DNA from: Flavobacteriaceae bacterium
GTDB taxonomy: Bacteria > Bacteroidota > Bacteroidia > Flavobacteriales > Flavobacteriaceae
Reading direction: 5' to 3'
Assembly (NCBI GenBank): GCA_965224465.1
Contig: OZ245049.1
Coordinates: 4,410,001 to 4,442,000, forward strand
Length of the DNA stretch: 32,000 bases
Below the pieces are notes generated by a model that was not told the DNA's origin, made no database searches, and saw nothing but the letters and a program-made list of their open reading frames with translations. The translations under genes were made by a program, and so were the position numbers. This document shows, piece by piece, positions 1 through 25,974 of the stretch (positions within the stretch are counted from its first letter, which is position 1; the number at the start of each line of letters is the position of its first letter).

Positions 1-101
1 TATTTAGCCGCTCAAAAAGCAGCCTATAATGAACTCAAAAACTTATCAACACCCAAGGTAGCATAATCTCTTTTTTAGAGAAAATTATGCGTAACATGAG
101 T
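1..101 (+). mobile_element. Window-truncated 3-prime end of an IS4/IS701-like insertion sequence (copy 1)
   Basis: 1..101 is the perfect reverse complement of 25975..26075 of the complete copy. It holds the transposase C-terminus (..YLAAQKAAYNELKNLSTPKVA, stop at 64..66) and the terminal inverted repeat ending ..GCGTAACATGAGT at 101. Confidence 0.85.
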
Positions 102-108
102 AAGTAAT

Positions 109-599: not shown

Positions 600-692
600 A
601 GTAAAATATTTTAAAGTTTTATAAATTAAGTAATTATATATGAGAATAGTATAAAATAAAATACAAACTCTGCTAAAATAGTATACGTTTAA

Positions 693-1930: not shown

Positions 1931-1968
1931 ACGTTTAATCTCAATAGTGTAATTACGAACAACAAATA

Positions 1969-2014
1969 TACAGTAATAACTGTACCTAAACAAAAAAAAA
2001 CAGTAATAACTGTA
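1969..2014 (+). promoter_or_regulatory. Two copies of a palindromic box ACAGTAATAACTGTA, candidate operators, next to a TAnnTTTG-type box
   Basis: TACAGTAATAACTGTA at 1969..1984 and ACAGTAATAACTGTA at 2000..2014, with starts 30 bp apart. The arms ACAGT/ACTGT are inverted. TATATTTG at 2022..2029 matches the Bacteroidota -7 consensus TAnnTTTG, just upstream of the ATG at 2033. Confidence 0.45.
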
Positions 2015-2026
2015 TTTTTTATATAT

Positions 2027-2275
2027 TTGTTTATGGTTAGAAAACAAATAAAAAAGATTGCAAAGCGTAAAGGGCTTTCTATAAACCAAATTATTGATAA
2101 AATTGGTTTCACTAAATCAGCTTATTACCAACTAAATAACCCATCGTTAAATAGGTTACTAACTATAGCACAGTCTTTACAATGTGATGTACATGAACTC
2201 TTACCAATATCAGAAGAATTTGAACATATTTACACGGGCAGCCAATGGATAGGAATAAAAATGAAAGAAAGATAA
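2027..2275 (+). CDS. XRE/Cro-C1-type helix-turn-helix transcriptional regulator (~80 aa; the ATG at 2033 is a more likely start than the TTG at 2027)
   Basis: IAKRKGLSINQIIDKIGFTKSAYYQLNNPSLNRLLTIAQSLQCDVHELL fits the HTH_XRE pattern. Confidence 0.75.
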   Translation: MFMVRKQIKKIAKRKGLSINQIIDKIGFTKSAYYQLNNPSLNRLLTIAQSLQCDVHELLPISEEFEHIYTGSQWIGIKMKER

Positions 2276-2686: not shown

Positions 2687-3811
2687 GCTGAATTCAAGTC
2701 ACAAACGCAACTTTTAGTTAAATAATAATTGTTCCATTACAAATATAGGGTTTTCGTATTTATGTCTCTTCCTAGGTCTGTTATTTAATTTTGTTTCTAC
2801 CTCTTTGATTCTTTGATCTGTTAGGTTTGTAAAGTCACTTCCTTTGGCAAAATATTGTCTAATCAAACCATTTAAATTTTCGTTAGATCCTCTTTCCCAA
2901 GAGTGATATGGATGCGCAAAAAAGTAATCAATACATAAATTTTCTGCAACCTGCTCATGGCCTGCAAATTCTTTTCCATTATCAGCTGTTATAGTATGTA
3001 GATAAGGCTTCCAGTCTTCTAATATTTCATTGATAGCTTTGGTGACAACAACTGCTTCTTTAGAGCTTACTTTTTTCATTTTAAGCATTCCAGAAGCTCT
3101 ATCATTTACGGTAAGTATGGCTTGATTATGGTTTTTACCTATGATTAAATCGACCTCTAAATCTCCAAATCGATTTCTTTGTTCAACAACTTCAGGTCGT
3201 TGTTCTATACTAATGCGATTCTTTATAACCCCTCTAGAATCCTTTGATGAGCCACGTTTTCTATATCTCCTTCCCTGTCTGCGAAGGTGTGTATGTAAAT
3301 CACCATCATTCCTCTTGTCTTCCCTAATATGCTGATATATACGCTCAATAGACACCGTTTCTTTACCTTGTTTTTTTAGGATACCAACTACTTGCTCAGG
3401 ACTATAATCGTCTCGCAATAACAATTCTATTGCTTGTTGAATATCTTCTGTAAAGCGTTTTCTTTTAGGCTTTTCTTTATGACGTTTAGCATACTTTTTT
3501 TGGGCTAATTCATGCTTGTAAACTCCATTTCTTTTGTCTGAATTACGCTTAATCTCTTTGCTAATAACAGACTTGTCTTTTCCTATAGCAGCTGCTATCT
3601 CAACCTGTTTATAACCTTGTTTTAACATGCAGCAAATTGTGTATCTTTGTGCTTGGGTGATGTGTTTCATACAACTTCTTTTTTCGAGATTTGAGACCGT
3701 AAGATACATATCCATCAAGACAAGAAAGGTAGGTTTTCCTACTTTTCTGTTTTGAAAATATAACCATCATAGAATCAAATCGAAAAGTTGCGTTTATTAG
3801 TTGAATTTAAG
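2687..3811 (-). mobile_element. IS30-family insertion sequence, copy A (1125 bp)
   Basis: Near-identical to copy B at 8792..9916. Imperfect ~28-bp terminal inverted repeats (GCTGAATTCAAGTCACAAACGCAACTTTT versus the reverse complement of AAAAGTTGCGTTTATTAGTTGAATTTAAG). 3-bp target duplication TTT at 2684..2686 and 3812..3814. Confidence 0.9.
2714..3718 (-). CDS. IS30-family transposase, 334 aa
   Basis: N-terminal HTH (ITQAQRYTICCMLKQGYKQVEIAAAIGKDKSVISKEIKRN) and a DDE core (..DLIIG.., ..TADNGKEF.., ..SWERGSNENLNGLIRQY) typical of IS30. Confidence 0.9.
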   Translation of the reverse strand: MMDMYLTVSNLEKRSCMKHITQAQRYTICCMLKQGYKQVEIAAAIGKDKSVISKEIKRNSDKRNGVYKHELAQKKYAKRHKEKPKRKRFTEDIQQAIELLLRDDYSPEQVVGILKKQGKETVSIERIYQHIREDKRNDGDLHTHLRRQGRRYRKRGSSKDSRGVIKNRISIEQRPEVVEQRNRFGDLEVDLIIGKNHNQAILTVNDRASGMLKMKKVSSKEAVVVTKAINEILEDWKPYLHTITADNGKEFAGHEQVAENLCIDYFFAHPYHSWERGSNENLNGLIRQYFAKGSDFTNLTDQRIKEVETKLNNRPRKRHKYENPIFVMEQLLFN

Positions 3812-4235
3812 TTTCTTTTAATAAACACATAAAGTATTCATCTATTTTATTTATTTCAGAACCTCCCCAGCAACCTAAACTTCCGCCTTTTCCTGTTTTA
3901 GGGTAGTTATCAGGATATCTAAACATACTATATGAAATGTTCAATTTATTATTTATTTCCCGGAAAGATTTTAGATTGATGTCTTTACTTACCTCATAAA
4001 AAAGTCTATCAAGGTCATGAGTCCTACTTACTTTTCCATTTTTTAATAATAATATACTTTTCAACATTTTTTCAATTGCTTGTGCTGCCAAAATATATGA
4101 TTGCTCGGTCATATCATTAAAAAAACATAATCTTGAAGCTATATAATCATGACACGCAATGTCATATTGGCCAACTATGTCTGTTTTTTCCCTAGCATAT
4201 TTTTGTAATTCCTTACCATTCATTGTTAATACCAT
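3807..4235 (-). pseudogene. 5-prime part of a HEPN-domain protein gene. The frame runs into IS30 copy A, which supplies the stop.
   Basis: AIEKMLKSILLLKNGKVSRTHDLDRLF matches the classical HEPN helix and the (R)xxHDLxxL motif. The annotated stop at 3807..3809 lies inside the IS30 terminal repeat. Confidence 0.65.
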
Positions 4236-4298
4236 AGAGTTTTTATTTGTAATTGAAACGTATCCGTCCGACGAAGTACGTATAGGAATTAAAAATAC

Positions 4299-4330
4299 AT
4301 AAAAAAACCTCGATTTATTGATCGAGGTTT
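4299..4330 (-). terminator. Hairpin plus T-run at the end of IS66 tnpC
   Basis: AAACCTCGA (4305..4313) pairs with TCGAGGTTT (4322..4330) around an 8-nt loop. On the minus strand a T-run follows. The hairpin overlaps the tnpC stop. Confidence 0.4.
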
Positions 4331-6000
4331 AAATTTTGTGGAAATAGCTCACTTAATTTTTGAGCATTGTAATCAGGGATTATATCCAGTATTTTTTTCA
4401 TCCATTTATAGGGGTTTACTTGGTGTTTTTTACAAGTCCCAAAAAAGGAATAGAACATCGCTGCATTTTTTGCAGCATCATGGCTACCTGCAAATAAATA
4501 ATTTTTACGTCCAATAGCTAATGTTCTGATAGATCCTTCTACTAGGTTATTATCTAGTTCTAAAGTACCGTCATACAGGTAGGCTTTTAAGTAGTCCCAT
4601 CGTTTTAATGTATAAGTAATTGCTTTTCCTAGTGGACTTTTCGGTAAGCTTCCTTGGGTGTTATGGATCAACCATTTTATAAATGTATCCATTATTGGTT
4701 GTGCTTTATCTAGGCGATAAGCATGCCGTTGCTCAGGAGTAAATTCCTGTTTTTTACAATGTCGCTCAATGGCATATAATTGTTGAATGAGTACCATCGC
4801 ATGACTCGCTTTTACTTTGTCATAGTCTAGTGCTTTCTCAAAATAACGACGTGCATGTGCCATACACCCTACTAAAGTGACATCTTTTTTATGTGCAAAT
4901 TCATCATATACAGCGTAGCCATCTGTTTGTAAATACCCTTTAAAGTTTTTAAGCATTTCTCTAGGTCCATGTTTAGATCTAGAGGGACGATAATCAAACA
5001 ATACCATTTTTTGTATGGGTGAATAGTACACCCAATGATATCCAGTATGAGTTTTTCCTTTTTTCTGTTTGTCTAGCACTGGAATAGTTGATTCATCGGC
5101 CTGTACATATCCTTGTGACAGCACCGTGTTTTTCATAGCCTGATACAGCGGCTTAAGTAAGTGTCCTAAGCTGTTTTGCCATCCATTTATTGTAGATGAA
5201 CTTATAGAGATTCCTTCTCGTTTAAAACGTTCTATCTGTCGATAATACGGTAAGTGATCTAAGAATTTATCAATCAATAGCTGTGCTAGCAGGCTGTTTG
5301 ATGCTACAGATTTTTCAATAGCAAAACTTGGTAAATCAGCCATAATAACGGTCTTAATACCTAAAGGGTTTCCATTGTCAATCAATGTGTCTTGTACTTT
5401 CTTTTTTAAGGCGTATTTTGGTCTGACATATCGTTTTATGTATAGCTTTGTGGGTACAAGTTCTAATTTATCTGTAATTTCTTCACCTATTTTTATTCGG
5501 TTCTCTATAGTCTCTTTAGGCTCTAAATTAATAATTTCAACAGGTAAATGACTGGGGAGATTTAAACTTCCAATCGTTCTTTTTTTAGCCTTTTTACGTT
5601 GATATGTAATGTTTACAGGAGCTTCTTCTTCCTGGGGCATCTCTTTTAAAACTTCGAAAGGGAGTTGCATTTGAAAAGGGTTATTAGCCATTATAAAACG
5701 CTCACGTTTTGTCCCAAAAATCATACGACGTAATTGCTCTAATTGAAATTGTCCATATCCGTATTTTGTCTCTAATTCTTTATATTGAGCTTCTAGGATA
5801 GCCTTTTGTAAAGTAACGTCTTTTGTCTTTATAGTAAGTAACTCATTCTTTGCGCTAAGAGAACTTGTCTTTGTATTAAGTAACTCATTCTTTGAGCTAA
5901 GAGAATTTGTCTTTTTGATAAGTAAATCTGACTTAGAATTAGCCTCCTGTAATAGGGCTATAAGTGCTTTTTTTGATAGCTGTTCTAAGTCTTTTTCCAT
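4315..6000 (-). CDS. tnpC: IS66-family transposase (TnpC), 561 aa
   Basis: N-terminal coiled-coil/leucine zipper, then the DDE region with LDHLPYYRQ, VQADESTIPVL and CMAHARRYF motifs typical of IS66 TnpC. Confidence 0.9.
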   Translation of the reverse strand: MEKDLEQLSKKALIALLQEANSKSDLLIKKTNSLSSKNELLNTKTSSLSAKNELLTIKTKDVTLQKAILEAQYKELETKYGYGQFQLEQLRRMIFGTKRERFIMANNPFQMQLPFEVLKEMPQEEEAPVNITYQRKKAKKRTIGSLNLPSHLPVEIINLEPKETIENRIKIGEEITDKLELVPTKLYIKRYVRPKYALKKKVQDTLIDNGNPLGIKTVIMADLPSFAIEKSVASNSLLAQLLIDKFLDHLPYYRQIERFKREGISISSSTINGWQNSLGHLLKPLYQAMKNTVLSQGYVQADESTIPVLDKQKKGKTHTGYHWVYYSPIQKMVLFDYRPSRSKHGPREMLKNFKGYLQTDGYAVYDEFAHKKDVTLVGCMAHARRYFEKALDYDKVKASHAMVLIQQLYAIERHCKKQEFTPEQRHAYRLDKAQPIMDTFIKWLIHNTQGSLPKSPLGKAITYTLKRWDYLKAYLYDGTLELDNNLVEGSIRTLAIGRKNYLFAGSHDAAKNAAMFYSFFGTCKKHQVNPYKWMKKILDIIPDYNAQKLSELFPQNLNLDQ

Positions 6001-6068
6001 ACATTAAATATACGAAAAATATACATGAACAGCCTGGTTTTATTAGGTTTTTTACCTGTAAAAAGACA

Positions 6069-6410
6069 TTAATAACGTTTCCTTTGTTGGATGTTTTTTA
6101 TAGACAGTCCATCAAGAAGCATCACCATTTGGCTGTATTTCATTTGTATACTTCCTTTCAGATTATCATACACCGGAAGTTCAAAAGTACCTCGTTCCAA
6201 TCGTTTATAATACAGTACAAATCCACCTGCTTGCCAATGCAATAGTTTTATTTTGTTTCGAGGTTTATTTATGAAGATAAAAACAGCTCCATTACTAGGA
6301 TCCTCTTCTAAATTATTACGGATAACACCTGACAAACCATTAAATCCTTTACGCATATCTGTGGGTTCTAGGTACAGATGAAAATCAAGTTCACTTGAAA
6401 GATTTAGCAT
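6069..6410 (-). CDS. tnpB: IS66 Orf2 accessory protein (TnpB), 113 aa
   Basis: LYLEPTDMRKGFNGLSGVI...IFINKPRNKIKLLHWQAGGFVLYYKRLERGTF is the conserved IS66 Orf2 signature. Confidence 0.9.
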   Translation of the reverse strand: MLNLSSELDFHLYLEPTDMRKGFNGLSGVIRNNLEEDPSNGAVFIFINKPRNKIKLLHWQAGGFVLYYKRLERGTFELPVYDNLKGSIQMKYSQMVMLLDGLSIKNIQQRKRY

Positions 6411-6411
6411 A

Positions 6412-6720
6412 TTACAAATGAATTAAATTTTGTAAATCGATAAGTGTAATCTCTTTGTTAATGACCAAATTTACACCTGTTGGATACTCGATTTTAAAAC
6501 TATCTAAAATAGAATTTCTGCTGTTTTCAATAGGAGCATCAATAAGTTCAACCTTTGAAAATCCACTGGCATTTTTGGAGGTCAATTTCTTATTCCAGTA
6601 CCTAAATTTACAAAGTGTAATTTTATGACTTTTACAATAATCTTCCAAGGTTAAATCACTCAACTTCCAATCGGAAACAACAGCTGTCATATAGGCTCGT
6701 TTTTCTTCGTTTTTTCTCAT
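6412..6720 (-). CDS. tnpA: IS66 Orf1 (TnpA-like) protein, 102 aa
   Basis: Its position and size match the first ORF of the IS66 tnpA-tnpB-tnpC operon. It is separated by 1 nt from Orf2. Confidence 0.7.
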   Translation of the reverse strand: MRKNEEKRAYMTAVVSDWKLSDLTLEDYCKSHKITLCKFRYWNKKLTSKNASGFSKVELIDAPIENSRNSILDSFKIEYPTGVNLVINKEITLIDLQNLIHL

Positions 6721-6815
6721 GCGTCAAAAATAGAAGCTATTTTTCCACTAAAAAATATGGGGATGGTCGGACGGATACATTGAAACAGGGAGAACTGAAC
6801 AGTTGTTTATACTTT

Positions 6816-6966
6816 TGTCAGCGTTCATTTAAAATAGAGAACAGATTTCATTTAAATTCTATAAAACTGATAACAATTAACTTACGGATAGCCTTTATTA
6901 CACCATAACTGTCAGTGTTCATTTAAAATAGAGAATAGATCTCATTTAAATTCTATAAAACTAATA
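6816..6966. repeat. Two 57-bp direct repeats (6816..6872 and 6910..6966), 94 bp apart start to start
   Basis: TGTCAGYGTTCATTTAAAATAGAGAAYAGATYTCATTTAAATTCTATAAAACTRATA occurs twice with 4 mismatches. Each copy contains an internal TCATTTAAA duplication. Confidence 0.7.
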
Positions 6967-7007
6967 GCTATGATCTTATTTGGACCAGGTGTAATTCATA
7001 TGGTTAA

Positions 7008-7053
7008 GTGGTATACTTTTCGGTTAATAGGTGGTATGGTTTTCGGTTAACAT
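7008..7053. repeat. Tandem 23-bp repeat, two units
   Basis: GTGGTATACTTTTCGGTTAATAG (7008..7030) is directly followed by GTGGTATGGTTTTCGGTTAACAT (7031..7053). Confidence 0.6.
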
Positions 7054-7058
7054 ATACA

Positions 7059-7237
7059 GGACTTATAAAAACACCAAGTAAACCCCTATAAATGGCTGAA
7101 AAAAGTACTGGATATAATCCCTGATTACAATGCTCTAAAATTAAATGAGCTATTTCCACAAAATTTAAACCTCGATCAATAAATCGAGGTTTTTTTATGT
7201 ATTTTTAATTCCTATACGTACTTCGTCGGACGGATAC
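7059..7237 (+). mobile_element. Remnant (~179 bp) of a second, diverged IS66 copy in opposite orientation
   Basis: It matches the reverse complement of ~4260..4438 (last ~35 codons of tnpC, the hairpin, and the terminal repeat ..GTCGGACGGATAC ending at 7237) with several substitutions. There is no similarity upstream of ~7059. Confidence 0.85.
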
Positions 7238-7359
7238 AAAAATATTAGGGAAACTAGCGGGCAAGCATATAACAATATCCAAACTGATTATGACAAAATT
7301 TTTATAACAACGCTAAATGCTAGTTGAGCCAATTCAATCAATAATACAAAAATAAGTTT

Positions 7360-8436
7360 TTAAAATGAATATTTAGTTTCCAAATAGTCATCTAACACAA
7401 AATCTTTAATATTTATTTTATCTATTGTTTCTTTGTTTACTATTAATGTATGAACAGGAGAACTTCCAATAATTTCTTTAGTGAAAATAATTTTATTTAA
7501 ATATAAATGTTCATCAAAATAGTATACTCTTTTTATTATTTGTTTATCAGGAGATAAATATACACTGCTAAATTGTAGTTTACTATTACTATAGGATATA
7601 TCTAAATAATTATCTGCATTACCATAGCAACAGGCAGATGGAAGAACGGTCGTATTGTATGAATAAAGTTTAAACTTGTTATTTTCTGTACCTTCAAGAA
7701 TCAGAATTGGTTTTACGCCAATTTTATTATTAGAACAATCAAAATTTTCTTTATAATCGAATGTTATTATTTTATCTTGGAACTTATCATTATTAAAATT
7801 TAATGTGATTTCATTAGATTTCACCATCTTTGAAAGCTTATACTCTTTAATAAAACTGTTTATTGATTTTGCATTTGTCTCTTCTTTTATTGGAAAACGT
7901 TTTTCTATTAATTCTTTTTTGACAACTATTCTTCCGTTTTTATCATTTATTTTATATTTTTTCCATTTACTAATATATGTCCCTTCTTCATCTTTAAAGA
8001 AATCTAAAATCCATAAATCCAAATTTTGATTTAGATAGAAGTATTTATATATAGCAGAATAATCATTAAAAGATTCTTTAAAAACTAATATTGAGTCTAT
8101 TACTTTATTTTCTTTTTTTGAAAATAGAAAAATTTCTTTATTTAATGTTTTATAATGTGGAGATGTTTCTTTTTTTAAATTAGAGTGTCTTAATAAAAAA
8201 TATAATTTAATGTTGTTTTTTAATATTATTTTTTCTTTTGATATTTTTTTATAAGAATACTTTAAGTTAAATAATGAACTACATTTATTATTAACTCCTT
8301 TACAAGTTTTATCTATATTATCTATAAATTTTTTTTGACTTATTTCTATATTACCTATTTCTTGTATTGGTTTGATTTTCTTACATGAAATTAAAAGTAT
8401 TATTATTATTATTATTATGGGTAAATGTTTTTTCAT
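7360..8436 (-). CDS. Very AT-rich lipoprotein, 358 aa; candidate cognate immunity protein of the upstream effector
   Basis: Signal peptide and lipobox (IIIIIIILLISCKK). Its ATG (8434..8436) overlaps the TGA (8433..8435) of the effector reading frame in an ATGA arrangement. No recognisable domain. Confidence 0.7.
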   Translation of the reverse strand: MKKHLPIIIIIIILLISCKKIKPIQEIGNIEISQKKFIDNIDKTCKGVNNKCSSLFNLKYSYKKISKEKIILKNNIKLYFLLRHSNLKKETSPHYKTLNKEIFLFSKKENKVIDSILVFKESFNDYSAIYKYFYLNQNLDLWILDFFKDEEGTYISKWKKYKINDKNGRIVVKKELIEKRFPIKEETNAKSINSFIKEYKLSKMVKSNEITLNFNNDKFQDKIITFDYKENFDCSNNKIGVKPILILEGTENNKFKLYSYNTTVLPSACCYGNADNYLDISYSNSKLQFSSVYLSPDKQIIKRVYYFDEHLYLNKIIFTKEIIGSSPVHTLIVNKETIDKINIKDFVLDDYLETKYSF

Positions 8437-8791
8437 TTTTCTTTAACTATTATTACTGAATCTTCATCAAATGAAGAATGTAAATGTGAATTATGTAAAC
8501 TGCCACCATCATTGGTATGCTTGAATTTTTTTGATTTTGAACCTCTTAAATGTTTTACAAAACCAAATTTTTGTAAGGCATCAATAAATTTTTGCTCATC
8601 TGAATTATTCAAATATTTTGTGTCAATACTTTTTCCATTTGAATGATCATAACTTGGAAATGCTGATCCTTCTTTAAAACAACTTCCTGTAGTAATGATA
8701 GAAAAGTTATTATCTGCAAGAGCTCCAATAAATGCACCTAAATGACCAGGACTAGTATATCTACGTTTTGTATTTGTAAAAGTATATTTAA
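8433..8791 (-). pseudogene. Distal C-terminal segment of the disrupted effector: LAS/M15-like metallopeptidase motifs
   Basis: Translation: KYTFTNTKRRYTSPGHLGAFIGALADNNFSIITTGSCFKEGSAFPSYDHSNGKSIDTKYLNNSDEQKFIDALQKFGFVKHLRGSKSKKFKHTNDGGSLHNSHLHSSFDEDSVIIVKEK. HSNGKSID fits HxxGxAxD (with A replaced by S), and a downstream HxxHxH cluster is present. The segment is in frame with 9917..10451 once IS30 copy B is removed. Confidence 0.6.
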
Positions 8792-9916
8792 GCTGAATTC
8801 AAGTCACAAACGCAACTTTTAGTTAAATAATAATTGTTCCATTACAAATATAGGGTTTTGATATTTATGTCTCTTCCTAGGTCTGTTATTTAATTTTGTT
8901 TCTACCTCTTTGATTCTTTGATCTGTTAGGTTTGTAAAGTCACTTCCTTTGGCAAAATATTGTCTAATCAAACCATTTAAATTTTCGTTAGATCCTCTTT
9001 CCCAAGAGTGATATGGATGCGCAAAAAAGTAATCAATACATAAATTTTCTGCAACCTGCTCATGGCCTGCAAATTCTTTTCCATTATCAGCTGTTATAGT
9101 ATGTAGATAAGGCTTCCAGTCTTCTAATATTTCATTGATAGCTTTAGTGACAACAACTGCTTCTTTAGAGCTTACTTTTTTCATTTTAAGCATTCCAGAA
9201 GCTCTATCATTTACGGTAAGTATGGCTTGATTATGGTTTTTACCTATGATTAAATCGACCTCTAAATCTCCAAATCGATTTCTTTGTTCAACAACTTCAG
9301 GGCGTTGTTCTATACTAATACGATTCTTTATAACCCCTCTAGAATCCTTTGATGAGCCACGTTTTCTATATCTCCTTCCCTGTCTGCGAAGGTGTGTATG
9401 TAAATCACCATCATTCCTCTTGTCTTCCCTAATATGCTGATATATACGCTCAATAGACACCGTTTCTTTACCTTGTTTTTTTAGGACACCAACTACTTGC
9501 TCAGGACTATAATCGTCTCGCAATAACAACTCTATTGCTTGTTGAATATCTTCTGTAAAGCGTTTTCTTTTAGGCTTTTCTTTATGACGTTTAGCATACT
9601 TTTTTTGGGCTAATTCATGCTTGTAAACTCCATTTCTTTTGTCTGAATTACGCTTAATCTCTTTGCTAATAACAGACTTGTCTTTTCCTATAGCAGCTGC
9701 TATCTCAACCTGTTTATAACCTTGTTTTAACATGCAACAAATTGTGTATCTTTGCGCTTGGGTGATGTGTTTCATACAACTTCTTTTTTCGAGATTTGAG
9801 ACCGTAAGATACATATCCATCAAGACAAGAAAGGTAGGTTTTCCTACTTTTCTGTTTTGAAAATATAACCATCATAGAATCAAATCGAAAAGTTGCGTTT
9901 ATTAGTTGAATTTAAG
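8792..9916 (-). mobile_element. IS30-family insertion sequence, copy B (1125 bp)
   Basis: Same ends as copy A. 3-bp target duplication TAA at 8789..8791 and 9917..9919. Only a few substitutions relative to copy A (the transposases differ at two residues, I/V and E/Q). Confidence 0.9.
8819..9823 (-). CDS. IS30-family transposase, 334 aa (copy B)
   Basis: Differs from the 2714..3718 product at two positions only. Confidence 0.9.
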   Translation of the reverse strand: MMDMYLTVSNLEKRSCMKHITQAQRYTICCMLKQGYKQVEIAAAIGKDKSVISKEIKRNSDKRNGVYKHELAQKKYAKRHKEKPKRKRFTEDIQQAIELLLRDDYSPEQVVGVLKKQGKETVSIERIYQHIREDKRNDGDLHTHLRRQGRRYRKRGSSKDSRGVIKNRISIEQRPEVVEQRNRFGDLEVDLIIGKNHNQAILTVNDRASGMLKMKKVSSKEAVVVTKAINEILEDWKPYLHTITADNGKEFAGHEQVAENLCIDYFFAHPYHSWERGSNENLNGLIRQYFAKGSDFTNLTDQRIKEVETKLNNRPRKRHKYQNPIFVMEQLLFN

Positions 9917-10451
9917 TAATATTAAAATCACTTTTCGAAACATCCAATGAGTTGGGCATTCTCACTAGCTCAATATCTTCATTTCCTGCGATATACAATC
10001 TCCATATTTTTCCTTTACTAGGATGGCTTCCATATTCTGCAATATCTCCATTTTGATATTTCACTCTCCTAGTTGTATTCCCGTCAGAAACAATGTTATC
10101 AGATGTGATAACGCTGTGTATTGGCTTAGAACTTTTTAAATGCCCTACACTTTTTTTCTTTGTAGTATTCCATTCAACAACACAAATTTCTGTTTCTATA
10201 TTTTTTTTATCATGGTATATATATTTGAATTTAGTTTTAAATTCTTCTTTTATATTTTTTGGTATATGTTTTTCAATTTCACCTTGCGAATAAATTCTAA
10301 ATGTAATAAGATCTTCTGCGTTAAAAGGAGGAGGAGTACATTGATTTGTTTTAAATGTTTTAAAGGCATTTTTCGTATAATTAATAGCTTTTGAGTTATT
10401 TCTGTCATAATAGTTTATAATAGCTCTAACTTTAGAAACATCTTTATACTT
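9917..10451 (-). pseudogene. Effector reading frame continuing after the in-frame TAA (about 178 codons, no canonical start for ~140 codons)
   Basis: Same frame as 10452..13595 and immediately after its TAA: KYKDVSKVRAIINYYDRNNSKAINYTKNAFKTFKTNQCTPPPFNAEDLITFRIYSQGEIEK...DVSKSDFNI, then IS30 copy B. The first ATG/GTG/TTG in this frame is about 50 codons before the IS. Confidence 0.6.
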
Positions 10452-13400
10452 TTATACTTTTTTAGCTTTTACATATACTTCTTTACCTTCCCAAAATGCA
10501 ATTGCGCTAAGAACAGCATATTTAATGTCAGAGACTTTCTGATAATTTAATTCTAAATCTAAATATTCATCAGAAAAAACTTTTTTCAGGTATGTAGATG
10601 CATTTTTATAGTTGCTTTTTCCTGTTAATTGAATAAGACCTCGCCCTCTATAATTCCAACCATCATCACCTCCTTTATTTCCGTTTTTACTTCCATATAC
10701 GGTGTTGAGAAGTTGTTTTTGGGGTCTTTCGGAAGCGATACTCACAATGGTTCCATTATTTACCATTTTTTTATATTCTGCACCCCAAAGGGCTTTAATA
10801 TTATTTTTAGAGTAATAAGGAGAACTGTTCCCTTCAGTTAATTTTATTTTTAACAATCCAGTTTCTGTGGTTATTTGACTTATAAAATGGGCTTTTAATA
10901 AACAGGTATTTATATGCAGTTCATTTGCTGTTCCTTTTCTTTTATTAATATATTCATTTATAAGTGTAACTATTTGTTTTCGGTAATCTTGATCATTTTT
11001 GTTACCAACGGTTTCATTAAGATTTTCAACAGTTATTTCTTCTTGACATCTTGGGCATTTTTCATCTCCAAAAACCCTCCGCATCTGCTCCACCCAAGCA
11101 ATAGGATGAAAGTGATGTACTATATTGCTTTTAGGAAACATACGTTTTGGTGGTACTTCTTTTTCTTCTACTTTAGTTTCTGGTGCTGGAGCAGCGGTTG
11201 TACTTGTCGTTGGTATACTATCTTCCGTTGGTTTAGCATCTGGTTTAGCTGCTGTTGTTTTATTGTCTAAAGGTACAACATCTTTTTGTGGTATTTCTTC
11301 TACCACTGTACCTTCTGGCAACATAGAAGGTCTTTTGGTACTACTCGTTTTTGTTTTATCTTCTTCTTTTATGGGTGCTGTGTAGGTTTTTTTACTTGCC
11401 TCATCCCACCACATTAAATTTTCTATTTTGGTTTCCATTTTGGCTAAACTATCATCCCTTTCGGTTTCTAGTTTTTGTTTTTCGGCTGTAACTTCTTCTA
11501 ATTGTATACCAAAATCATAGAGTTCTTTTACTTCTGGTTTTATTTCGTCCATAGTATAAGACCATTCATTTTTATGCTTACATACCAAACGAGATAGTTT
11601 TTGTGCTATTTCCGGTTTACTAAACGCTCTAATAAGCTCTAGTATATCTAATACTTTATTGCCATCTGTATCTATTGTTTTATCCCAAATTTCGGTTACA
11701 AAAGCGGCACTATCTGTTGCCTTACATAAGTCTTTTACAGAGTATATGTATTCATTACCTGCGTCTAGATCTTTAAAACCAAATTTTTGCCAATCGTAAG
11801 CGCTAAATTTGTCAAGATCCTTTTCTTTTACCCAGCCTTTTACTGCTACACATTGGCCACTAGTTGTATCATCTAATACTACTTTATACCAAAGGTCTTT
11901 TTTATCGTCTTTTGCTTTTTTAAATTTACGTAAGTCAACTACTTTTTCTTTTTCTACAGTTACTTCTTCTACATCGGTTCTAAAAGGGACTTCGATATAT
12001 GCCTTACATACATCTACATATAATGTAGTTTTTTCTCCTGTTTTGGCTTCTCTTTCAACTGTATCGTATTTTTGTTCTTCTGTTAAAAAATAGTCAGGAG
12101 TAATTGAGACAAATATACCTGCTTTTTTTTTGGTTTTTTCTGTTATTTTGGAAATAAATGTTTTTTCTACCCAAAACACTTTACCATAGCCATTTGGGTA
12201 AAAGGTAACAGTTCTGTTTAAATTTGTTCTCCAATTTCTTGGTGCTTTTACTTGTTTTGTATTGAATGTGGCATCTTTAGTTGCAAGACCATTAAATGCT
12301 TTATTAACCGTAGTAAGATTTTTGATAGTATAAAGTTTATTGCTATTAAATGGTTTTACGTTATCATTAATATCGGTATCTCTAACTAAGGTTGCAGTAA
12401 TAGATGTTACTTTTATTTGTGCATAATCTCCTTTAATTTTAAGTACTTTTATGGGTGTATTTGCTTTAATATCTACTTTGTAAGATAGGCTTGTTTTTAA
12501 TTTTGTGCCTGCTATAATATTTGTAAAATATTGTTCTTCTTTTCCATCTTTTTTTTCATTACTTAAAAACTCAAAAACATCATCTGTTGTAAATACTTCT
12601 AAGTGGGTTGCTTTATATCCTTTGTACCCTTTAAAACCTAAGTTACCTGTATAGCCAATGGTTACACCTGCTTTTATTGGTATATCACAAGCTGTAATTT
12701 CGTCTAGTTTTCCTTTGGAATTATCAAATGTAATTTTTGTTGTGAAACCAGAGTTATGTATAAAGCCAGATCCATCTTTTAATTTTTTCCAATTACCTTT
12801 TACTGTTTCATCTATTTCTAATACCTCATCATAAGGCACTATTTTTATAATTTTGGATGATGACTTTCCACTTTCTCTTACTCTAGCTCCTAAAACAGAT
12901 TTATTTTCTGTTTCATCTTCTGTAGTAATTATTTCTAAGGTATTTTCTGTTATTTTTTTTACTTGTTTTCCGATTTTTACATATATATAAATATCGGTAT
13001 ATGTTTTACCATCTTTATCTGTGTAGTTAATTCGCTTGTAACTTCCAGTGTTTATTTTGTTGTCTTCTAAAGGAGCTAAATTTACAGTACTTCCTTTAGG
13101 TATTACTACAGACACTCCTTTTTCAGATATATCTATTTTATTGTTTTTTAAAACTCTTGCATTAAGCCCTTCAATTGGTATGCCTTCTTTACTTATTATA
13201 ATATAAGAACTTTTACTTAAAAACTTAGGTATTTTTGCACTGTTTTCATCACTAATAATATCCGATTCGGGCATTAATTGATGATACAAACTATAAAAGG
13301 TCATTTTTTGTTTTTCTTTACTTTTATAATCGTGTTGTATGAGTATAAATCCGTTGGAATATAAGTGATCCGTATTGTTTATTATCGTTTTTTTATACTC

Positions 13401-13595
13401 TTTTGCAAAGCGGTAGGCAATTATACGACCTTGCGCAATGCATTGTATTTCTCTACTTGCACCTTCTAAATGTATACCACCATGCCAAGCATTATGCGCT
13501 CCAATAGGGTATTTTCCAAAAAGGTTACGATTCCCCAAATAATTTTTTGCTTCGGCATCAGTACTAATATCTTTTAGCGGATAACTTACTCTCAT
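10452..13595 (-). CDS. Large multi-domain peptidoglycan-hydrolase effector (1047 aa as annotated): split LytM/M23-like motifs, a Pro/Thr/Ala-rich linker and a GH19-type lysozyme/chitinase-like domain
   Basis: N-terminal YPIGAHNAWHGGIHLEG, and about 300 aa later IKAGVTIGYTGNLGFKGYKGYKATHLEVF (M23 HxxxD / G-x-T-G...HxH-like pattern). Linker AAKPDAKPTEDSIPTTSTTAAPAPETKVEEKEVPP. C-terminal GDDGWNYRGRGLIQLTGKSNY, the hallmark of GH19-like phage and T6SS muramidases. It starts 11 nt downstream of the PAAR gene. Confidence 0.75.
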   Translation of the reverse strand: MRVSYPLKDISTDAEAKNYLGNRNLFGKYPIGAHNAWHGGIHLEGASREIQCIAQGRIIAYRFAKEYKKTIINNTDHLYSNGFILIQHDYKSKEKQKMTFYSLYHQLMPESDIISDENSAKIPKFLSKSSYIIISKEGIPIEGLNARVLKNNKIDISEKGVSVVIPKGSTVNLAPLEDNKINTGSYKRINYTDKDGKTYTDIYIYVKIGKQVKKITENTLEIITTEDETENKSVLGARVRESGKSSSKIIKIVPYDEVLEIDETVKGNWKKLKDGSGFIHNSGFTTKITFDNSKGKLDEITACDIPIKAGVTIGYTGNLGFKGYKGYKATHLEVFTTDDVFEFLSNEKKDGKEEQYFTNIIAGTKLKTSLSYKVDIKANTPIKVLKIKGDYAQIKVTSITATLVRDTDINDNVKPFNSNKLYTIKNLTTVNKAFNGLATKDATFNTKQVKAPRNWRTNLNRTVTFYPNGYGKVFWVEKTFISKITEKTKKKAGIFVSITPDYFLTEEQKYDTVEREAKTGEKTTLYVDVCKAYIEVPFRTDVEEVTVEKEKVVDLRKFKKAKDDKKDLWYKVVLDDTTSGQCVAVKGWVKEKDLDKFSAYDWQKFGFKDLDAGNEYIYSVKDLCKATDSAAFVTEIWDKTIDTDGNKVLDILELIRAFSKPEIAQKLSRLVCKHKNEWSYTMDEIKPEVKELYDFGIQLEEVTAEKQKLETERDDSLAKMETKIENLMWWDEASKKTYTAPIKEEDKTKTSSTKRPSMLPEGTVVEEIPQKDVVPLDNKTTAAKPDAKPTEDSIPTTSTTAAPAPETKVEEKEVPPKRMFPKSNIVHHFHPIAWVEQMRRVFGDEKCPRCQEEITVENLNETVGNKNDQDYRKQIVTLINEYINKRKGTANELHINTCLLKAHFISQITTETGLLKIKLTEGNSSPYYSKNNIKALWGAEYKKMVNNGTIVSIASERPQKQLLNTVYGSKNGNKGGDDGWNYRGRGLIQLTGKSNYKNASTYLKKVFSDEYLDLELNYQKVSDIKYAVLSAIAFWEGKEVYVKAKKV

Positions 13596-13606
13596 AGATT
13601 TTCATT

Positions 13607-14068
13607 TTAGATACTTAAATTAAAATCACTAAGATATCCATGTTTCTTAGCTTCTTCTTTTATTTTTTCTTGGTTTTCTTGCGCTTGACTTGTATTCCCT
13701 AATATTCTATTAATTAGAGTGATTTTAGGAAAAGGTATTTGACTCAAAGGCATTATTGCGGTAGGAGCACTACATCTTGTACCAATAAGTACAGTAGTAT
13801 TTCCAATGCTTACTTCGCCTCCATGACCTGTTTTTGATCCCATAGTAGCTGCGGGTCTCCCGCCAATTAATACGGTAGAAACACCTTCTACAATTACATC
13901 GGGTGGTCCCGAACAGGTACATTGATCCCCCATTACTGCGGCAGGTTTTCCTCCTATTAAAACTGTTGGCACTCCCGGGCCTATAATGGGGCCGCCAGTA
14001 TGTGGGCTTGTTCCACTATACATAGGGCATGTGTGCATGTGTGATATTGTTGCTGCTGGTCCTGGCAT
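13607..14068 (-). CDS. PAAR-domain spike-tip protein with a ~60-aa C-terminal extension, 153 aa
   Basis: Repeated PAAR motifs (VLIGGKPAAVMGDQCTC, VLIGGRPAATMGSKTGHGG, TVLIG) and the Cys/His pattern HMHTCPM. Confidence 0.85.
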   Translation of the reverse strand: MPGPAATISHMHTCPMYSGTSPHTGGPIIGPGVPTVLIGGKPAAVMGDQCTCSGPPDVIVEGVSTVLIGGRPAATMGSKTGHGGEVSIGNTTVLIGTRCSAPTAIMPLSQIPFPKITLINRILGNTSQAQENQEKIKEEAKKHGYLSDFNLSI

Positions 14069-14476
14069 AATTTTTTGTTTTTTATGTTATGTTCTACCGC
14101 TTGAGTGCGTTAAATTACTTAAAATCCCATATTCTCACAGTAGCAGTGCTAAACAAGATGTCATATCCATTTAACCTACGATGTAGCATTGGGTTATTTT
14201 ATTATTCAGACGTATATATGTATAAGCAGTCTTCAAATGTACAAAAAATAGTTATACGCACGTGTTTTTTGTGTTTTAATTCTAGGTATTAGTGTTTGCA
14301 TGGTTGGACTAAAGGCAGGATTCCTGTTTTTCTGCTTTTTAAAAGCATGAATTAAGGAAGGCTCTAACTAGAAAAGAGTCTTCTAATCTAACAAAATAAA
14401 CAATAATTGCTATGGATACGCTTCGCTTATGACACAACGGTTATGAGTACTTAATGGATGTATTTAAGCGAGTTAT

Positions 14477-14541
14477 CTGTTTTGAAAATATAACCATCAA
14501 ATAATCAAATCTAAAAGTTGCGTTTATTAGTTGAATTTAAG
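14477..14541 (-). mobile_element. Solo end remnant (~65 bp) of the IS30 element
   Basis: CTGTTTTGAAAATATAACCATCA.ATAATCAAATCTAAAAGTTGCGTTTATTAGTTGAATTTAAG matches the last ~65 bp of copies A and B (3747..3811 and 9852..9916) with a few substitutions. The rest of the element is absent. Confidence 0.8.
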
Positions 14542-14588
14542 TAAGGAAAGTGCGGCTATTATGAAAAACCTTAAAAAATTGATAAAGA

Positions 14589-14906
14589 ATGATTAAGGAT
14601 ACTAAAACAGTTTCACCTGATGGTTGGGAATTAAAAGAATGGAATGACGTTCTTGAGATAAGAAGTGGAAGAAACCAGAAAGTCGTTGAAAATCCAAACG
14701 GAAAATATAGGATCATTGGAAGTGCGGGGAAAATTATGGGGTATGCTGATAAGTATATTTGTGAAGAAAATACAACTATTATTGGACGTAAGGGAACTAT
14801 AAATTCGCCATTATTTATAGAACACAAGTTCTGGAATGTTGATACAGCTTTTGGCTTGCATTCTAAAGAGCAACTCGATAATGGCTCCATACCAAAAATT
14901 GTATAA
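14589..14906 (+). pseudogene. hsdS: Truncated Type I restriction-modification specificity subunit (HsdS): a single partial target-recognition domain, 105 aa
   Basis: VSPDGWELKEWNDVLEIRSGRNQK ... IIGSAGKIMGYADKY ... TIIGRKGTINSPLFIEHKFWNVDTAFGL follows the conserved HsdS N-terminus/TRD pattern. The ORF stops before the central conserved region and the second TRD. A 17-codon ORF tail enters from the IS30 scar and overlaps its start by 8 nt. Confidence 0.6.
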
Positions 14907-15099: not shown

Positions 15100-15678
15100 A
15101 TGAAAAACAGCAAAGAGCTTCCCGTTAATTTCCATGAGAAAGGAAAATTCTATTTAACAGAAAACGAAGTAGAACAATTGATCCTGGCATCTAAAAATAG
15201 CCGGCACCCTATTAGAAACTCTTTAATGATTCTTATGATGTTTCGTCATGGTTTACGAGTATCGGAACTTATCAATCTCCGGATCAAAAGTATAAATTTT
15301 GAAAACAACCTGATTTGGATAAATAGGTTAAAAGGTGGATTATCTTTGGAACACCCAATTCTGGGTGATGAAAAGCGTGCAATCAAACGTTATTTGAGAA
15401 CCAGGGAAAAAACAGACAATTCTCCTTATCTTTTTATCAATGAACGCATGGATCAATTCTCCCGTAAAACAATCAATTACATAATCAAGACCGCAGCTAA
15501 AAAAGCAACCCTAGATAATGTACACCCACACACATTAAGGCATTCCTGTGGCTATTATATGGCTAACAAAGGGACAGACTTAAGAACTATGCAAGACTAT
15601 TTAGGACATCGAGACCCTAAACATACGGTTATATATACGCAAATTAGTGGGAGCCGGTTTGAAAGTATTTGGGAATAA
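15100..15678 (+). CDS. Small (192 aa) catalytic-domain-only tyrosine recombinase, Fim/invertase-like
   Basis: RHGLRVSEL (catalytic Arg), HPHTLRHSCG (HxxR) and LGHRDPKHTVIYT (His..Tyr) give a complete R-H-R-H-Y set. There is no N-terminal core-binding domain. Confidence 0.85.
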   Translation: MKNSKELPVNFHEKGKFYLTENEVEQLILASKNSRHPIRNSLMILMMFRHGLRVSELINLRIKSINFENNLIWINRLKGGLSLEHPILGDEKRAIKRYLRTREKTDNSPYLFINERMDQFSRKTINYIIKTAAKKATLDNVHPHTLRHSCGYYMANKGTDLRTMQDYLGHRDPKHTVIYTQISGSRFESIWE

Positions 15679-15788: not shown

Positions 15789-16667
15789 ATGTACAGGTGT
15801 TGTTGCATAATTAAAAAAGAACCCCCAAAATTGACTAAATTACATTACAAAGAGAAATTCCTAATTGAGAAATTATTTGAAATGCCATCAGGGTATGTGA
15901 TGGATTTTTCCAACAGAACCTTTGAGGAATTCATTTACGACAGTATTTGTATCAATATTTATGACGACAAATACTTTTATGCGAGTGGTTCGAAAGCAAA
16001 TAGACTTAGAGGCTTTTTTAGTGAAGAGCCGAGCTACAAAATCGGAGAACTTTTGACCGCACTTTTAGATTATTGGCATACTAAAGCAATTGCAAAAGAA
16101 TATGGATTCGATTTTGAGAAAAATGAAAACATTTATAAAGAATGTTTAAAAATTGCAAGTAGATTAAAAGAAGAAACAATTGTTGAAGAAATTGATGTAA
16201 TAAAGGAAATTGAGGATGATAGAGATTTCAGTTTACTTGCCAAGTCTATTCGAGAAAGTATAAATAAAAATGAACCTGAAGTTGCTTTAGATAGATTACA
16301 TACATACGTTATGAAATTCATCAGGCAATTATGTGAGAATCATAAAATTGAAATTAAAAAAGAGGAATCTCTTAATGCAATATTTGGCAAGTATGTAAAG
16401 TTCATTGTAGCAAATGAAAAAATTGAGTCTAAAATGGCTGAAAGAATTTTAAAATATTCTATCCACGTCATAGAAGCCTTTAATGATATTAGAAACAATA
16501 GAAGCTTTGCTCACGATAATCAAATTTTGAATTATTCCGAGAGTGTTCTTATTTTCAATAATGTCACAAATTCGATAAAGTTTATTGAGACTATTGAAAA
16601 AACAATAGAACAGGAAAACAAAAAAAATGAAGTAGAAACGGCTGATTGGGAAGATTTACCGTTTTAA
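15789..16667 (+). CDS. AbiJ/Abi_C-like abortive-infection protein with a C-terminal HEPN motif, ~290 aa (start uncertain)
   Basis: The C-terminal helix bundle with AFNDIRNNRSFAHDN carries the Rx4-6H HEPN signature as found in the Abi_C family. The N-terminal region has GYVMDFSNRTFEEF...SKANRLRGFF. Confidence 0.5.
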   Translation: MYRCCCIIKKEPPKLTKLHYKEKFLIEKLFEMPSGYVMDFSNRTFEEFIYDSICINIYDDKYFYASGSKANRLRGFFSEEPSYKIGELLTALLDYWHTKAIAKEYGFDFEKNENIYKECLKIASRLKEETIVEEIDVIKEIEDDRDFSLLAKSIRESINKNEPEVALDRLHTYVMKFIRQLCENHKIEIKKEESLNAIFGKYVKFIVANEKIESKMAERILKYSIHVIEAFNDIRNNRSFAHDNQILNYSESVLIFNNVTNSIKFIETIEKTIEQENKKNEVETADWEDLPF

Positions 16668-19213: not shown

Positions 19214-19585
19214 GTGGACCTTACTGTTATTAAGAATCCCGATGAGCGAAAGTATTTACAAACACTATTAAATAATATCTCAGAACTACAAGTCATCCGA
19301 AAATTGGTACAGATTTTTAAAACGATGTTAAAAAGAGGGCATGGTAATATAATCCGATGGATTGATTTTATAAAACGATCGAAATACAAGATGACAGGAT
19401 TAATTACTTTTGCCAATGGATTATTAAGAGACATTAAAGCCGTTAAAAACGGAATTAATATGTCTTGGAGTAATGGTGCTGTGGAAGGTCATGTAAATCG
19501 GATAAAAAGTATCAAGAGGCAAATGTATGGCAGGGCTAGCTTTGATCTATTACGCAAGAAAGTGATATTGTCTCAAACGGGATGA
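19214..19585 (+). pseudogene. C-terminal fragment of an ISL3-family transposase
   Basis: FANGLLRDIKAVKNGINMSWSNGAVEGHVNRIKSIKRQMYGRASFDLLRKKVIL is the conserved ISL3 transposase C-terminus. The N-terminal ~300 aa are missing. Confidence 0.8.
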
Positions 19586-19683: not shown

Positions 19684-20028
19684 ATGGGCACATTTTTAGC
19701 AATACTACTTGTAGTTATTTTGGTTGTATATCTATATAACAATGGAAAAGAGCATACAATGGTTGATCCCGATGTACATAGCTATTACCTTGCACAAACA
19801 GATACTGGAGAATGGGTAAATTTCCCAACAATATTTAAACTAACTGGAAATAACGATATAATAATTTCTACTCCAAACGAGAGAATACTTGTATTAAATG
19901 TTATTGAGATTGAACCGAATACGTATACTGGTACTTTAGCTTCCTTAGGAGTTTTCACAACTGTATTTATGAGTGATGAAAAAGCATATTTCCATATTAT
20001 GGGAAATACAATGAAAAATTACAAATAA
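19684..20028 (+). CDS. Hypothetical membrane-anchored protein, 114 aa
   Basis: N-terminal TM segment (FLAILLVVILVVYLY). No known motif. Its 3-prime end overlaps the convergent gene by 10 nt. Confidence 0.45.
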   Translation: MGTFLAILLVVILVVYLYNNGKEHTMVDPDVHSYYLAQTDTGEWVNFPTIFKLTGNNDIIISTPNERILVLNVIEIEPNTYTGTLASLGVFTTVFMSDEKAYFHIMGNTMKNYK

Positions 20029-25894: not shown

Positions 25895-25974
25895 CTTAAT
25901 AATTGATTTAAATTTTTTTTTTAGTTTTTAAAATAATCATTAAATGTATCAATGTTTTAGCATTGAATTTAGTA

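Follow-up and report, generated by a model that had tools for sequence, protein, structure and literature searches.

Probable relic of a PAAR-coupled, TseP-like effector module of Bacteroidota type VI secretion, with a putative two-domain immunity lipoprotein

We analyzed a stretch of 32,000 nucleotides (nt) of a Flavobacteriaceae genome (contig OZ245049.1), hereafter called the window, in which a PAAR gene, a long interrupted effector gene, and a lipoprotein gene follow one another on the minus strand from position 14068 down to 7360. This region is most probably the relic of a cargo module of the Bacteroidota type VI secretion system iii (T6SS-iii), made up of a PAAR protein, a TseP-like effector, and an immunity lipoprotein. 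The C-terminal part of the effector is predicted to comprise, in this order, a GH19-type lysozyme, a beta-rich module, and a LAS-type zinc peptidase, the last two of which together form the beta+LAS toxin. An earlier note on the same DNA had proposed a contractile-injection cargo/immunity module, and the gene clusters of relatives bear this out, specifically for the T6SS-iii type. Our interpretation draws on homology, domain folds, gene neighborhoods, the co-variation of toxin and immunity genes, and two disruptions of the effector gene; secretion, enzymatic specificities, and protection are what we infer.

A homologue search with the effector returned 57 proteins, mostly of 900-1350 amino acids (aa), from Flavobacteriia and Cytophagia, with Tenacibaculum maritimum, Aquimarina, Tamlana, and Fulvivirga among the hosts. 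These proteins are alike over the first ~840 residues and diverge beyond, where their tips include CHAP, M23, GH24 lysozyme, and GH19 domains. The remoter homologues were 835-aa Aeromonas proteins annotated as pesticin-like muramidase. As demonstrated by BLASTP against P0045, a TseP homologue of Aeromonas dhakensis, the similarity covers aa 1-109 of the effector (34%, E=2e-19), the EF-hand region at aa 582-678 (33%, E=2e-10), and the IGY.G...HLEVF segment (E=0.002). Residues W37, H38, G39, G40, H42, H88, and F335 were invariant in a 30-sequence alignment of the N-domain. TseP is a T6SS effector of A. dhakensis SSU, whose N-domain is a Zn-dependent peptidoglycan amidase structurally required for T6SS assembly and whose C-domain is a lysozyme; it is the cargo of VgrG2 and is neutralized by TsiP (Wang et al., eLife 2025, PMC11893102). 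The TseP family was defined as T6SS effectors that are amidase-lysozyme chimeras; secretion through the T6SS and an amidase activity that depends on Zn are established for the Aeromonas and Pseudomonas proteins only, and Bacteroidota are left unmentioned (PMC11893102). By homology, the window effector is a predicted member of this family. In Pfam and NCBIfam searches, SH3_3 was the sole domain recognized in it apart from a weak EF-hand match, and a profile search of the whole effector family against PDB sequences gave EF-hand matches only, all non-significant. The residues mutated in the TseP paper (H19, H23, H109, and others) could not be carried over, as no simple numbering offset fits the Aeromonas homologue.

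The PAAR gene (13607..14068; all parts of the module are on the minus strand) encodes 153 aa, comprising a PAAR domain of ~96 aa and a C-terminal extension of ~57 aa. Its open reading frame (ORF) scored 74.1 bits against Pfam PAAR_motif (PF05488; E=1e-20), above the gathering cutoff of 27, which bears out its previous assignment; the match to NCBIfam T6SS_PAAR_dom was partial (34.6 versus a cutoff of 124). A scan of species-representative genomes found 310 effector relatives, of which 80 loci were fetched. Using the window PAAR as a query, we detected a PAAR protein of ~155 aa directly upstream of the effector in 49 of the 57 Bacteroidota-type loci with enough upstream sequence (E between 1e-74 and 1e-30), and the C-terminal extension, moderately conserved, was present in all 55 aligned PAARs. 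The gap between the two genes ranged from 2 to 28 nt and was mostly 10-12 nt, so the 11 nt between the PAAR stop and the effector ATG in the window are typical. Of the 41 loci whose sequence extends far enough beyond the pair, 21 had an adjoining VgrG, while the other 20 pairs had no adjacent VgrG. The description of the module as an orphan thus holds in that the window contains no T6SS structural gene; however, the orphan state is ordinary rather than distinctive, being found at about half of the loci (20/41), and such pairs are common anyway.

The identity of the secretion machine emerges from the relatives. In Cellulophaga (L031), the gene order is TssN, TssK, TssO, ClpV, TssE, TssF, VgrG, PAAR, effector, and lipoprotein; two other loci (L013 and L022) carry the same marker set, and partial sets occur at several more. 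Because TssN and TssO are specific to Bacteroidota T6SS-iii, their presence beside the relatives argues against an origin from a phage or from an extracellular contractile injection system (eCIS). An Afp/PVC-like eCIS or a phage-tail-like bacteriocin, with the PAAR protein sharpening the spike and the hydrolase as payload, would fit a window devoid of T6SS genes, the general occurrence of PAAR domains in eCIS and phage spikes, and the eukaryote-like LRR/MORN and Sel1 proteins of this host, which recall some eCIS-bearing symbionts. We nevertheless consider such a system very improbable, as relatives of both genes directly follow VgrG in TssN/TssO/TssK/TssE/TssF/ClpV clusters and as eCIS sheath, tube, or baseplate genes were seen beside none of the 80 loci examined for these markers.

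The effector gene occupies 8433..13595 and would encode 1344 aa once repaired. It is interrupted by a TAA nonsense codon (10452..10454), which lies inside the lysozyme domain and closes an otherwise intact first ORF of 1047 aa (10452..13595), and by copy B of an IS30-family insertion sequence (IS; 8792..9916, transposase ORF 8819..9823), which is flanked by a TAA duplication (8789-8791 and 9917-9919). Deletion of 8792..9919 together with read-through of the TAA gave a single 4035-nt frame of 1345 codons, exactly the interrupted frame that had been postulated from 13595 to 8433. The repair goes beyond arithmetic alone, as it was confirmed by three metagenome contigs (L081-L083) that share 84-86% DNA identity with window 11447..7331 and carry the same region uninterrupted. 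In these relatives, the position of the TAA is a Lys codon (KAKKVKKY; KAKKVKKYTNVSKV), and the sequence at the IS junction (SNFNIKYTFTNTKRRY) equals the in silico repaired window sequence without a gap. Downstream, the effector TGA (8433..8435) overlaps the ATG of the lipoprotein gene (8434..8436) as ATGA; both this overlap with a 358-aa gene and the 11-nt spacing are present in the sequence as the earlier note had reported. A scan for promoters and terminators yielded counts no different from shuffled expectation.

The effector gene is thus doubly inactivated, and the copy at this locus is a relic or pseudogene rather than a working module. A competing possibility is that the locus still functions, with the truncated 1047-aa product retaining the amidase and loading roles of the N-domain and being fired together with PAAR, while the lipoprotein guards against the related LAS-type toxin of the paralogue P0009 or of kin cells. 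We regard this as rather unlikely. Three parts are indeed intact, namely, the PAAR gene, codons 1-1047, and the ORF of the lipoprotein; P0009 bears a beta+LAS tip, and in Aeromonas TseP-N is secreted by itself and suffices to restore the assembly of the T6SS (PMC11893102). However, the stop codon removes roughly the last 35 residues of the lysozyme fold, after the insertion the lipoprotein is no longer coupled to an upstream frame that is being translated, and the surroundings are full of gene fragments and IS elements.

The first enzyme module of this pseudogene, the N-domain (aa 1-345; 12561..13595), consists of two variant M23-like halves, ~190 residues apart, that are split by a beta/SH3 insert (SH3_3 at 12750..12890). 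Its motifs are HxxxH (WHGGIH, 13470..13487) and HxE (HLE, within HLEVF at 12591..12605) and not the HxxxD and HxH of canonical M23 peptidases, and PF01551 (M23) did not match the window effector. Among 18 related N-domains, 6 gave sub-threshold Pfam M23 matches (best E=2e-4), and hhalign of the spliced core with an M23 alignment, part of which (including LytM and lysostaphin sequences) had been entered by hand, returned a probability of 87% over 37 columns. The AlphaFold2 (AF2) model of the domain had a pLDDT of 83.6. The N-domain, more weakly supported than the modules of the tip, may therefore be described as M23-like by resemblance and TseP-N-like by homology, but not as a canonical M23 member.

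The N-domain is followed by the conserved middle region (11082..12560), with an EF-hand-like motif (11616..11678) and a linker rich in P, T, and A (~11151..11363), and then by the lysozyme domain (10341..11048). The corresponding segment matched 4OK7, the SPN1S endolysin, in a phmmer search of the PDB (E=3.9e-11), as well as 9EOI (8e-10), 8P8E (2e-8), and 8XCL (1.4e-6); together with 9MS6, which was also matched, the endolysin matches span E values from 4e-11 to 7e-8. The crystal structure 8XCL represents TseP-C and was itself solved by molecular replacement from 4OK7 (PMC11893102). In addition, the segment contains TETG and YRGRGLIQLTG, which fit the catalytic Glu region and the RG(R/K)G.(I/L/M)Q(L/I)T motif. 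These comparisons show a predicted GH19-type lysozyme of the SPN1S endolysin/TseP-C type, although the Pfam profile PF00182 matched its relatives P0043 and P0050 and not the window effector.

The terminal toxin is formed by the beta-rich module (aa ~1095-1225; 9920..10313, upstream of the IS), supported by the AF2 model and by conservation, and by a stretch (8433..8791) holding the end of that module and a LAS-like zinc-peptidase domain of the Hedgehog/DD-peptidase fold, with the motifs PS..H..G...D and H..HLH, before the TGA at 8433..8435. These ~250 residues define a family with 32 further members in addition to the conserved relatives L031, L028, and P0009. Residues P191, S192, H195, G198, D202, H245, H248, L249, and H250 were invariant in 21-25 sequences and contain the combination H-x6-D and H-x-H, which is the LAS pattern. 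The AF2 model (pLDDT 91.6, pTM 0.89) shows the beta-rich module followed by an alpha/beta domain of ~110 residues. In a Foldseek search of the PDB, the best eight matches were all Hedgehog N-terminal domains (probability 0.57-0.87), Hedgehog being the S of LAS, and the BFVD matches were a phage cell-wall hydrolase, a tape-measure protein, a "Peptidase", and a "Peptidase M15A" (probability up to 1.0, E=2e-3). Motif and fold matches, the latter consistently of one fold family, together support a predicted LAS-type zinc peptidase. Pfam detected no domain, and no M15/VanY profile match, in 21 members of the terminal toxin family, and a profile search against PDB sequences returned only non-significant matches to G5 domains. 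For the beta-rich module itself (aa ~1140-1190), the weak, non-significant matches (E=0.5-2) were to G5 domains of the staphylococcal Aap protein. As G5 domains occur in cell-wall-binding proteins, the beta-rich module might be a peptidoglycan-binding element.

Of the three peptidoglycan-hydrolase signatures initially named, GH19 stands on sequence and LAS on motif plus structure prediction, whereas the M23-like one is weaker; likewise, among the profiles proposed as a check, PAAR matched but M23, GH19, and M15 did not match the window protein. Phage lysins characteristically carry GH19-type, M15, and M23 modules, and we also weighed whether the effector might be the remnant of a prophage or tail-associated lysin, with the lipoprotein as an unrelated phage lipoprotein or a superinfection-exclusion factor. 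The best PDB and BFVD matches are indeed phage endolysins, a phage cell-wall hydrolase, and a tape-measure protein, and integrase and Abi genes lie nearby. Yet the window contains no capsid, tail, terminase, or portal gene, the conserved partners are PAAR and VgrG and not phage genes, the homologues of the 840-aa body include a demonstrated T6SS effector, and the lipoprotein co-varies with the tip over different delivery scaffolds. A phage origin is therefore very improbable.

The T6SS-iii relic is further characterized by the exchangeability of its tip. Between aa 338 and the junction motif VHHFHPIAWVEQM (11082..11120), the window protein has a near-identical counterpart in the paralogue P0004; at the motif the homology ends, and P0004 continues with a different, lysozyme-like plus CHAP tip. 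This paralogue, whose contig equals in length the one from which the window derives, has lost its own N-domain. Another paralogue, P0009, likewise from a contig of that length, is an apparently intact 1033-aa family member with the beta+LAS module as its sole tip. The GH19+LAS tip of L081 forms an orphan cassette, consisting of a 626-aa ORF that begins inside the conserved pre-toxin region (at the equivalent of window 11447). It is part of an array in which a CHAP-ended ORF and two small lipoprotein genes (398..2109) precede the GH19+LAS cassette with its lipoprotein, and in which 5177..5788 is the start of another cassette, again opening with the conserved pre-toxin region. Orphan cassettes of a C-terminal tip and its immunity gene are an established concept for Rhs and CdiA-CT toxins. 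The tip can also switch scaffold: in L090 (1926..5996), GH19+beta+LAS is fused to a DUF4280 (PAAR-like) N terminus in a 1356-aa protein. In a second assembly (L091, 2036..5996), the DUF4280-tip gene is split into ORFs of 716 and 577 aa, which may reflect a decaying copy or an assembly frameshift.

The tips of the 82 full-length effectors in the fetched loci were CHAP in 13 (plus 1 CHAP with a second module), GH19 in 5, GH24 in 4, and LAS in 3; the remaining tips were unclassified, and the GH19+LAS combination was found in none of the 82. Two-enzyme tips did occur among the 57 homologues, namely, M23 with GH24 in P0007 and lysozyme-like with CHAP in P0003. On short proteins, beta+LAS toxins adjoin VgrG in Apibacter and lie near TssC in Chryseobacterium, and further examples are found in Gilliamella (Gammaproteobacteria) and T. 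maritimum. The scaffolds carrying the beta+LAS tip thus include TseP-like bodies, DUF4280/PAAR-like proteins, and short proteins near VgrG or TssC. A conserved body, a sharp homology break, variable tips, a co-varying downstream immunity gene, and orphan cassettes are all seen in this family. The suggestion of a swapped polymorphic toxin/immunity tip is supported by the P0004 break, the L081 cassette, and the L090 scaffold switch, and the window tip appears to be such a cassette. In contrast, the AT-richness that had been adduced for the stretch from about 10450 to 7360 applies to the lipoprotein gene, the only markedly AT-rich part (GC content 0.20), and not to the effector tip, as GC content is 0.27-0.32 across all effector segments. 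An AT-rich swapped toxin tip was therefore rejected, since the immunity gene alone is AT-rich.

The lipoprotein gene (7360..8436) encodes 358 aa with a signal peptide and a lipobox (..LLISC), arranged as an N-domain (~7897..8382) and a C-domain (~7363..7896). It was thought to lack a recognizable family. Searches of Pfam, NCBIfam, and the PDB, family-wide scans included, indeed found no relative, so that no curated family covers it; however, an exhaustive HMMER search of 1.84 billion representatives revealed a small conserved family of 25 clusters. This family comes in three forms: some members (~200 aa) have the N-domain alone, others (~350 aa) have both domains, and P0094 and P0095 have the C-domain alone, P0094 with a lipobox. 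The N-domain (aa ~20-180) is homologous to the product of the gene directly downstream of every beta+LAS toxin examined, including those of L031 and L028 (34-36% identity), L084 (E=3e-32), L087 (4e-27), and L086 (9e-16); in L088, the likeness is confined to a visible motif. The pairing of a LAS toxin with N-domain immunity also occurs in Gilliamella, outside Bacteroidota.

All four two-domain clusters (window/P0091, P0092, P0093, and P0096; L081-83 and L090-95) directly follow a GH19+beta+LAS toxin, while the C-domain was found in none of the six LAS-only toxin contexts. Toxin and immunity gene co-occur across ~10 independent contexts. The lipoprotein, which had been taken for an immunity gene from its position, behaves as cognate, co-varying with the toxin tip across contexts, and its role as the putative immunity protein that tracks the tip is supported by these neighborhoods. 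The 4/4 versus 0/6 split led us to propose a fused double immunity protein. We favor, by a small measure only, a lipoprotein that consists of two fused immunity modules mirroring the tip, in which the N-domain would block the previously undescribed beta+LAS toxin and the C-domain would block GH19; the beta+LAS toxin domain and the immunity domains, all of uncurated families, would move between T6SS scaffolds as one cassette.

Several observations weigh against this overall interpretation. The window holds no T6SS structural gene, VgrG, or VgrG remnant, making a T6SS of the host presumptive; proximity to VgrG or a T6SS cluster is seen in 21 of 41 related loci and not here. The experimental support stems from Aeromonas and Pseudomonas proteins and none of it from Bacteroidota members. 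Pfam and NCBIfam gave no M23, GH19, or M15 match for the window effector, and a Foldseek search of the PDB with the N-domain model returned nothing significant, only SH3 pieces, likely because its M23-like core is split by the 190-aa insert. The LAS fold matches stay below the usual significance cutoff, as none reaches E=0.001 (best 2e-3). The immunity role and the division of labor between the two domains are based on a gene-neighborhood correlation of four clusters versus six contexts, and the stand-alone C-domain lipoprotein P0094 (L089), from the single such context retrieved, is not beside a lysozyme toxin.

We propose the following mechanism for the working relatives. A small PAAR protein would cap the VgrG spike and, probably via its C-terminal extension, carry a cytoplasmic effector of ~1000-1350 aa without a signal peptide. 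The conserved 840-aa body, a homologue of TseP-N, would act as a Zn-dependent peptidoglycan amidase and as a structural loading domain, and the fixed junction motif VHHFHPIAWVEQM would be followed by the exchangeable tip, in the window a predicted GH19/SPN1S-type lysozyme, then the beta-rich module, then the LAS-type zinc peptidase. With lysozyme and LAS peptidase in one tip, the intact protein, once injected into the periplasm of a rival, would attack the cell wall in its glycan as well as its peptide portion. In the periplasm of the producer, the translationally coupled lipoprotein would neutralize the tip, with the N-domain presumably directed at the LAS peptidase and the C-domain at the lysozyme. 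The cassette of tip and immunity gene may have been acquired by recombination in the conserved pre-toxin region. The gene has since been inactivated twice: in the lysozyme domain, AAA became the nonsense codon TAA, and in the terminal toxin IS30 inserted. Any upstream VgrG context may have been lost through IS-mediated rearrangements.

The region around the module is rich in IS elements. Copy A of the IS30 element (2687..3814) is flanked by a 3-bp TTT duplication and differs from copy B, flanked by TAA, at 11 of the 1128 compared positions (IS plus 3-bp duplication), including 2 that belong to the duplication. A solo IS30 end (14473..14544; 72 nt, 94% identical) lies ~400 bp upstream of the PAAR gene and is followed by a fragment of a type I restriction-modification (R-M) specificity subunit. 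The two copies and the solo end indicate recent IS30 activity and IS-mediated deletion. On the other side, an IS66-family element (4260..7237) begins 122 bp downstream of the lipoprotein gene and contains three ORFs, including a 561-aa DDE_Tnp_IS66 transposase; it is bounded by unusually long inverted repeats of 171 nt (98% complementary) and has no target duplication, which suggests recombination between copies rather than simple insertion. Together with the solo IS30 end, this element points to a rearrangement of the original locus context.

Other features of the window include a 107-nt inverted repeat (98%) between positions 1..107 and 25969..26075, the latter where a DDE transposase gene (26010..27104) ends; another copy of this IS probably extends past the left end of the window. 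The IS load further includes an IS4/IS5-like transposase (703..1827) and an ISL3 fragment (19214..19585). The R-M fragment, a Methylase_S sequence (14589..14906), stands beside a 192-aa tyrosine recombinase (15100..15678), and a second recombinase of 198 aa is encoded at 24661..25257; the combination of Methylase_S and recombinase recalls a phase-variable, hsdS shufflon-like arrangement, apparently degraded. An 889-aa protein with MORN and leucine-rich repeats (20019..22688), whose gene contains 66-nt tandem DNA repeats (20181..20378), has a Sel1-repeat protein nearby (23599..24222). These eukaryote-like proteins are typical of host-associated bacteria and fit the heavy IS load. Last, a HEPN-domain protein gene (3807..4235), abutted at its 3' end by IS30 copy A, and an Abi_C (abortive infection) protein gene (15789..16667) give the effector relic defense-island-like surroundings.

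The earlier note had called the architecture unusual and had known of no described family, a view that we could not uphold, as the protein falls within the TseP family (PMC11893102) and as the dedicated PAAR, the 10-12 nt spacing, and the multi-enzyme tips recur in Bacteroidota relatives. Body and lysozyme are TseP-like, and PAAR coupling with exchangeable tips, some of them two-enzyme, is recurrent in the Bacteroidota branch. New relative to the searchable literature are a PAAR-coupled, polymorphic T6SS-iii branch of the TseP family, an uncurated beta+LAS toxin, and an uncurated immunity family with a second immunity domain apparently fused to it. A full-text literature search found no paper describing a PAAR/TseP-like cargo family in Bacteroidota. 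The T6SS-iii of this phylum is reportedly treated by Russell et al. 2014 and Bongiovanni et al. 2024 (PMC10781749). Our results extend the TseP effector family from Proteobacteria to Bacteroidota T6SS-iii, where it appears as a PAAR-coupled polymorphic toxin system. They also point to a LAS-type toxin domain and an immunity family, both uncharacterized and open to direct testing, and would illustrate, in a clean natural case, the parallel evolution of fusions between toxin domains and fusions between immunity domains. For this genome, the module is of lesser importance because it is a pseudogene copy in a region being dismantled by IS elements.

Compared with known systems, the window effector is closest to TseP of Aeromonas. 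Both have an N-terminal body with WHGGIH, QH(D/E), FYSLY.HL, and HLEVF motifs and an EF-hand region, and both have a C-terminal SPN1S-endolysin-type lysozyme, the window domain matching the TseP-C structure 8XCL; VgrG-linked cargo, a downstream immunity gene, and a chimeric N/C origin are likewise common to the TseP family and the window type. In contrast to the Aeromonas and Pseudomonas loci, which have VgrG directly upstream and in which no homologue of the window PAAR was detected, the Bacteroidota branch stands behind a dedicated PAAR with a C-terminal extension and in T6SS-iii clusters. It further differs by a 250-aa insert that includes SH3, by the P/T-rich linker and the fixed junction motif, and by exchangeable tips (CHAP, GH24, M23, GH19, and LAS) that also occur as orphan tip arrays. 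In the window copy, a LAS-type module is present as a third one, and the accompanying lipoprotein has two domains and lies outside all curated families. With respect to Bacteroidota T6SS-iii, relatives of the module stand at the end of tssN-tssK-tssO-clpV-tssE-tssF-vgrG clusters, whereas the window is without such structural genes.

The terminal module shares H-x6-D and H-x-H with LAS/M15 peptidases (VanY, VanX, phage L-Ala-D-Glu peptidases, and the Hedgehog N-domain), and its predicted fold is closest to Hedgehog N-domains and phage M15A-type hydrolases. Unlike these peptidases, it has no sequence-level match in Pfam or the PDB, is preceded by a family-specific beta-rich module of ~140 aa, and would serve as Bacteroidota T6SS cargo, adjoining candidate cargo genes in Gilliamella. 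As in polymorphic toxins such as Rhs and CdiA-CT, the delivery body of the family is conserved, homology breaks off sharply at a fixed motif, and the tips vary, each with its own immunity gene; displaced tips keep a stretch of conserved pre-toxin sequence for recombination. The family departs from these toxins in that the delivery body is a TseP-N-like enzyme and not Rhs/YD or filamentous hemagglutinin repeats, and in that the junction motif is VHHFHPIAWVEQM and not PxxxxDPxGL or VENN.

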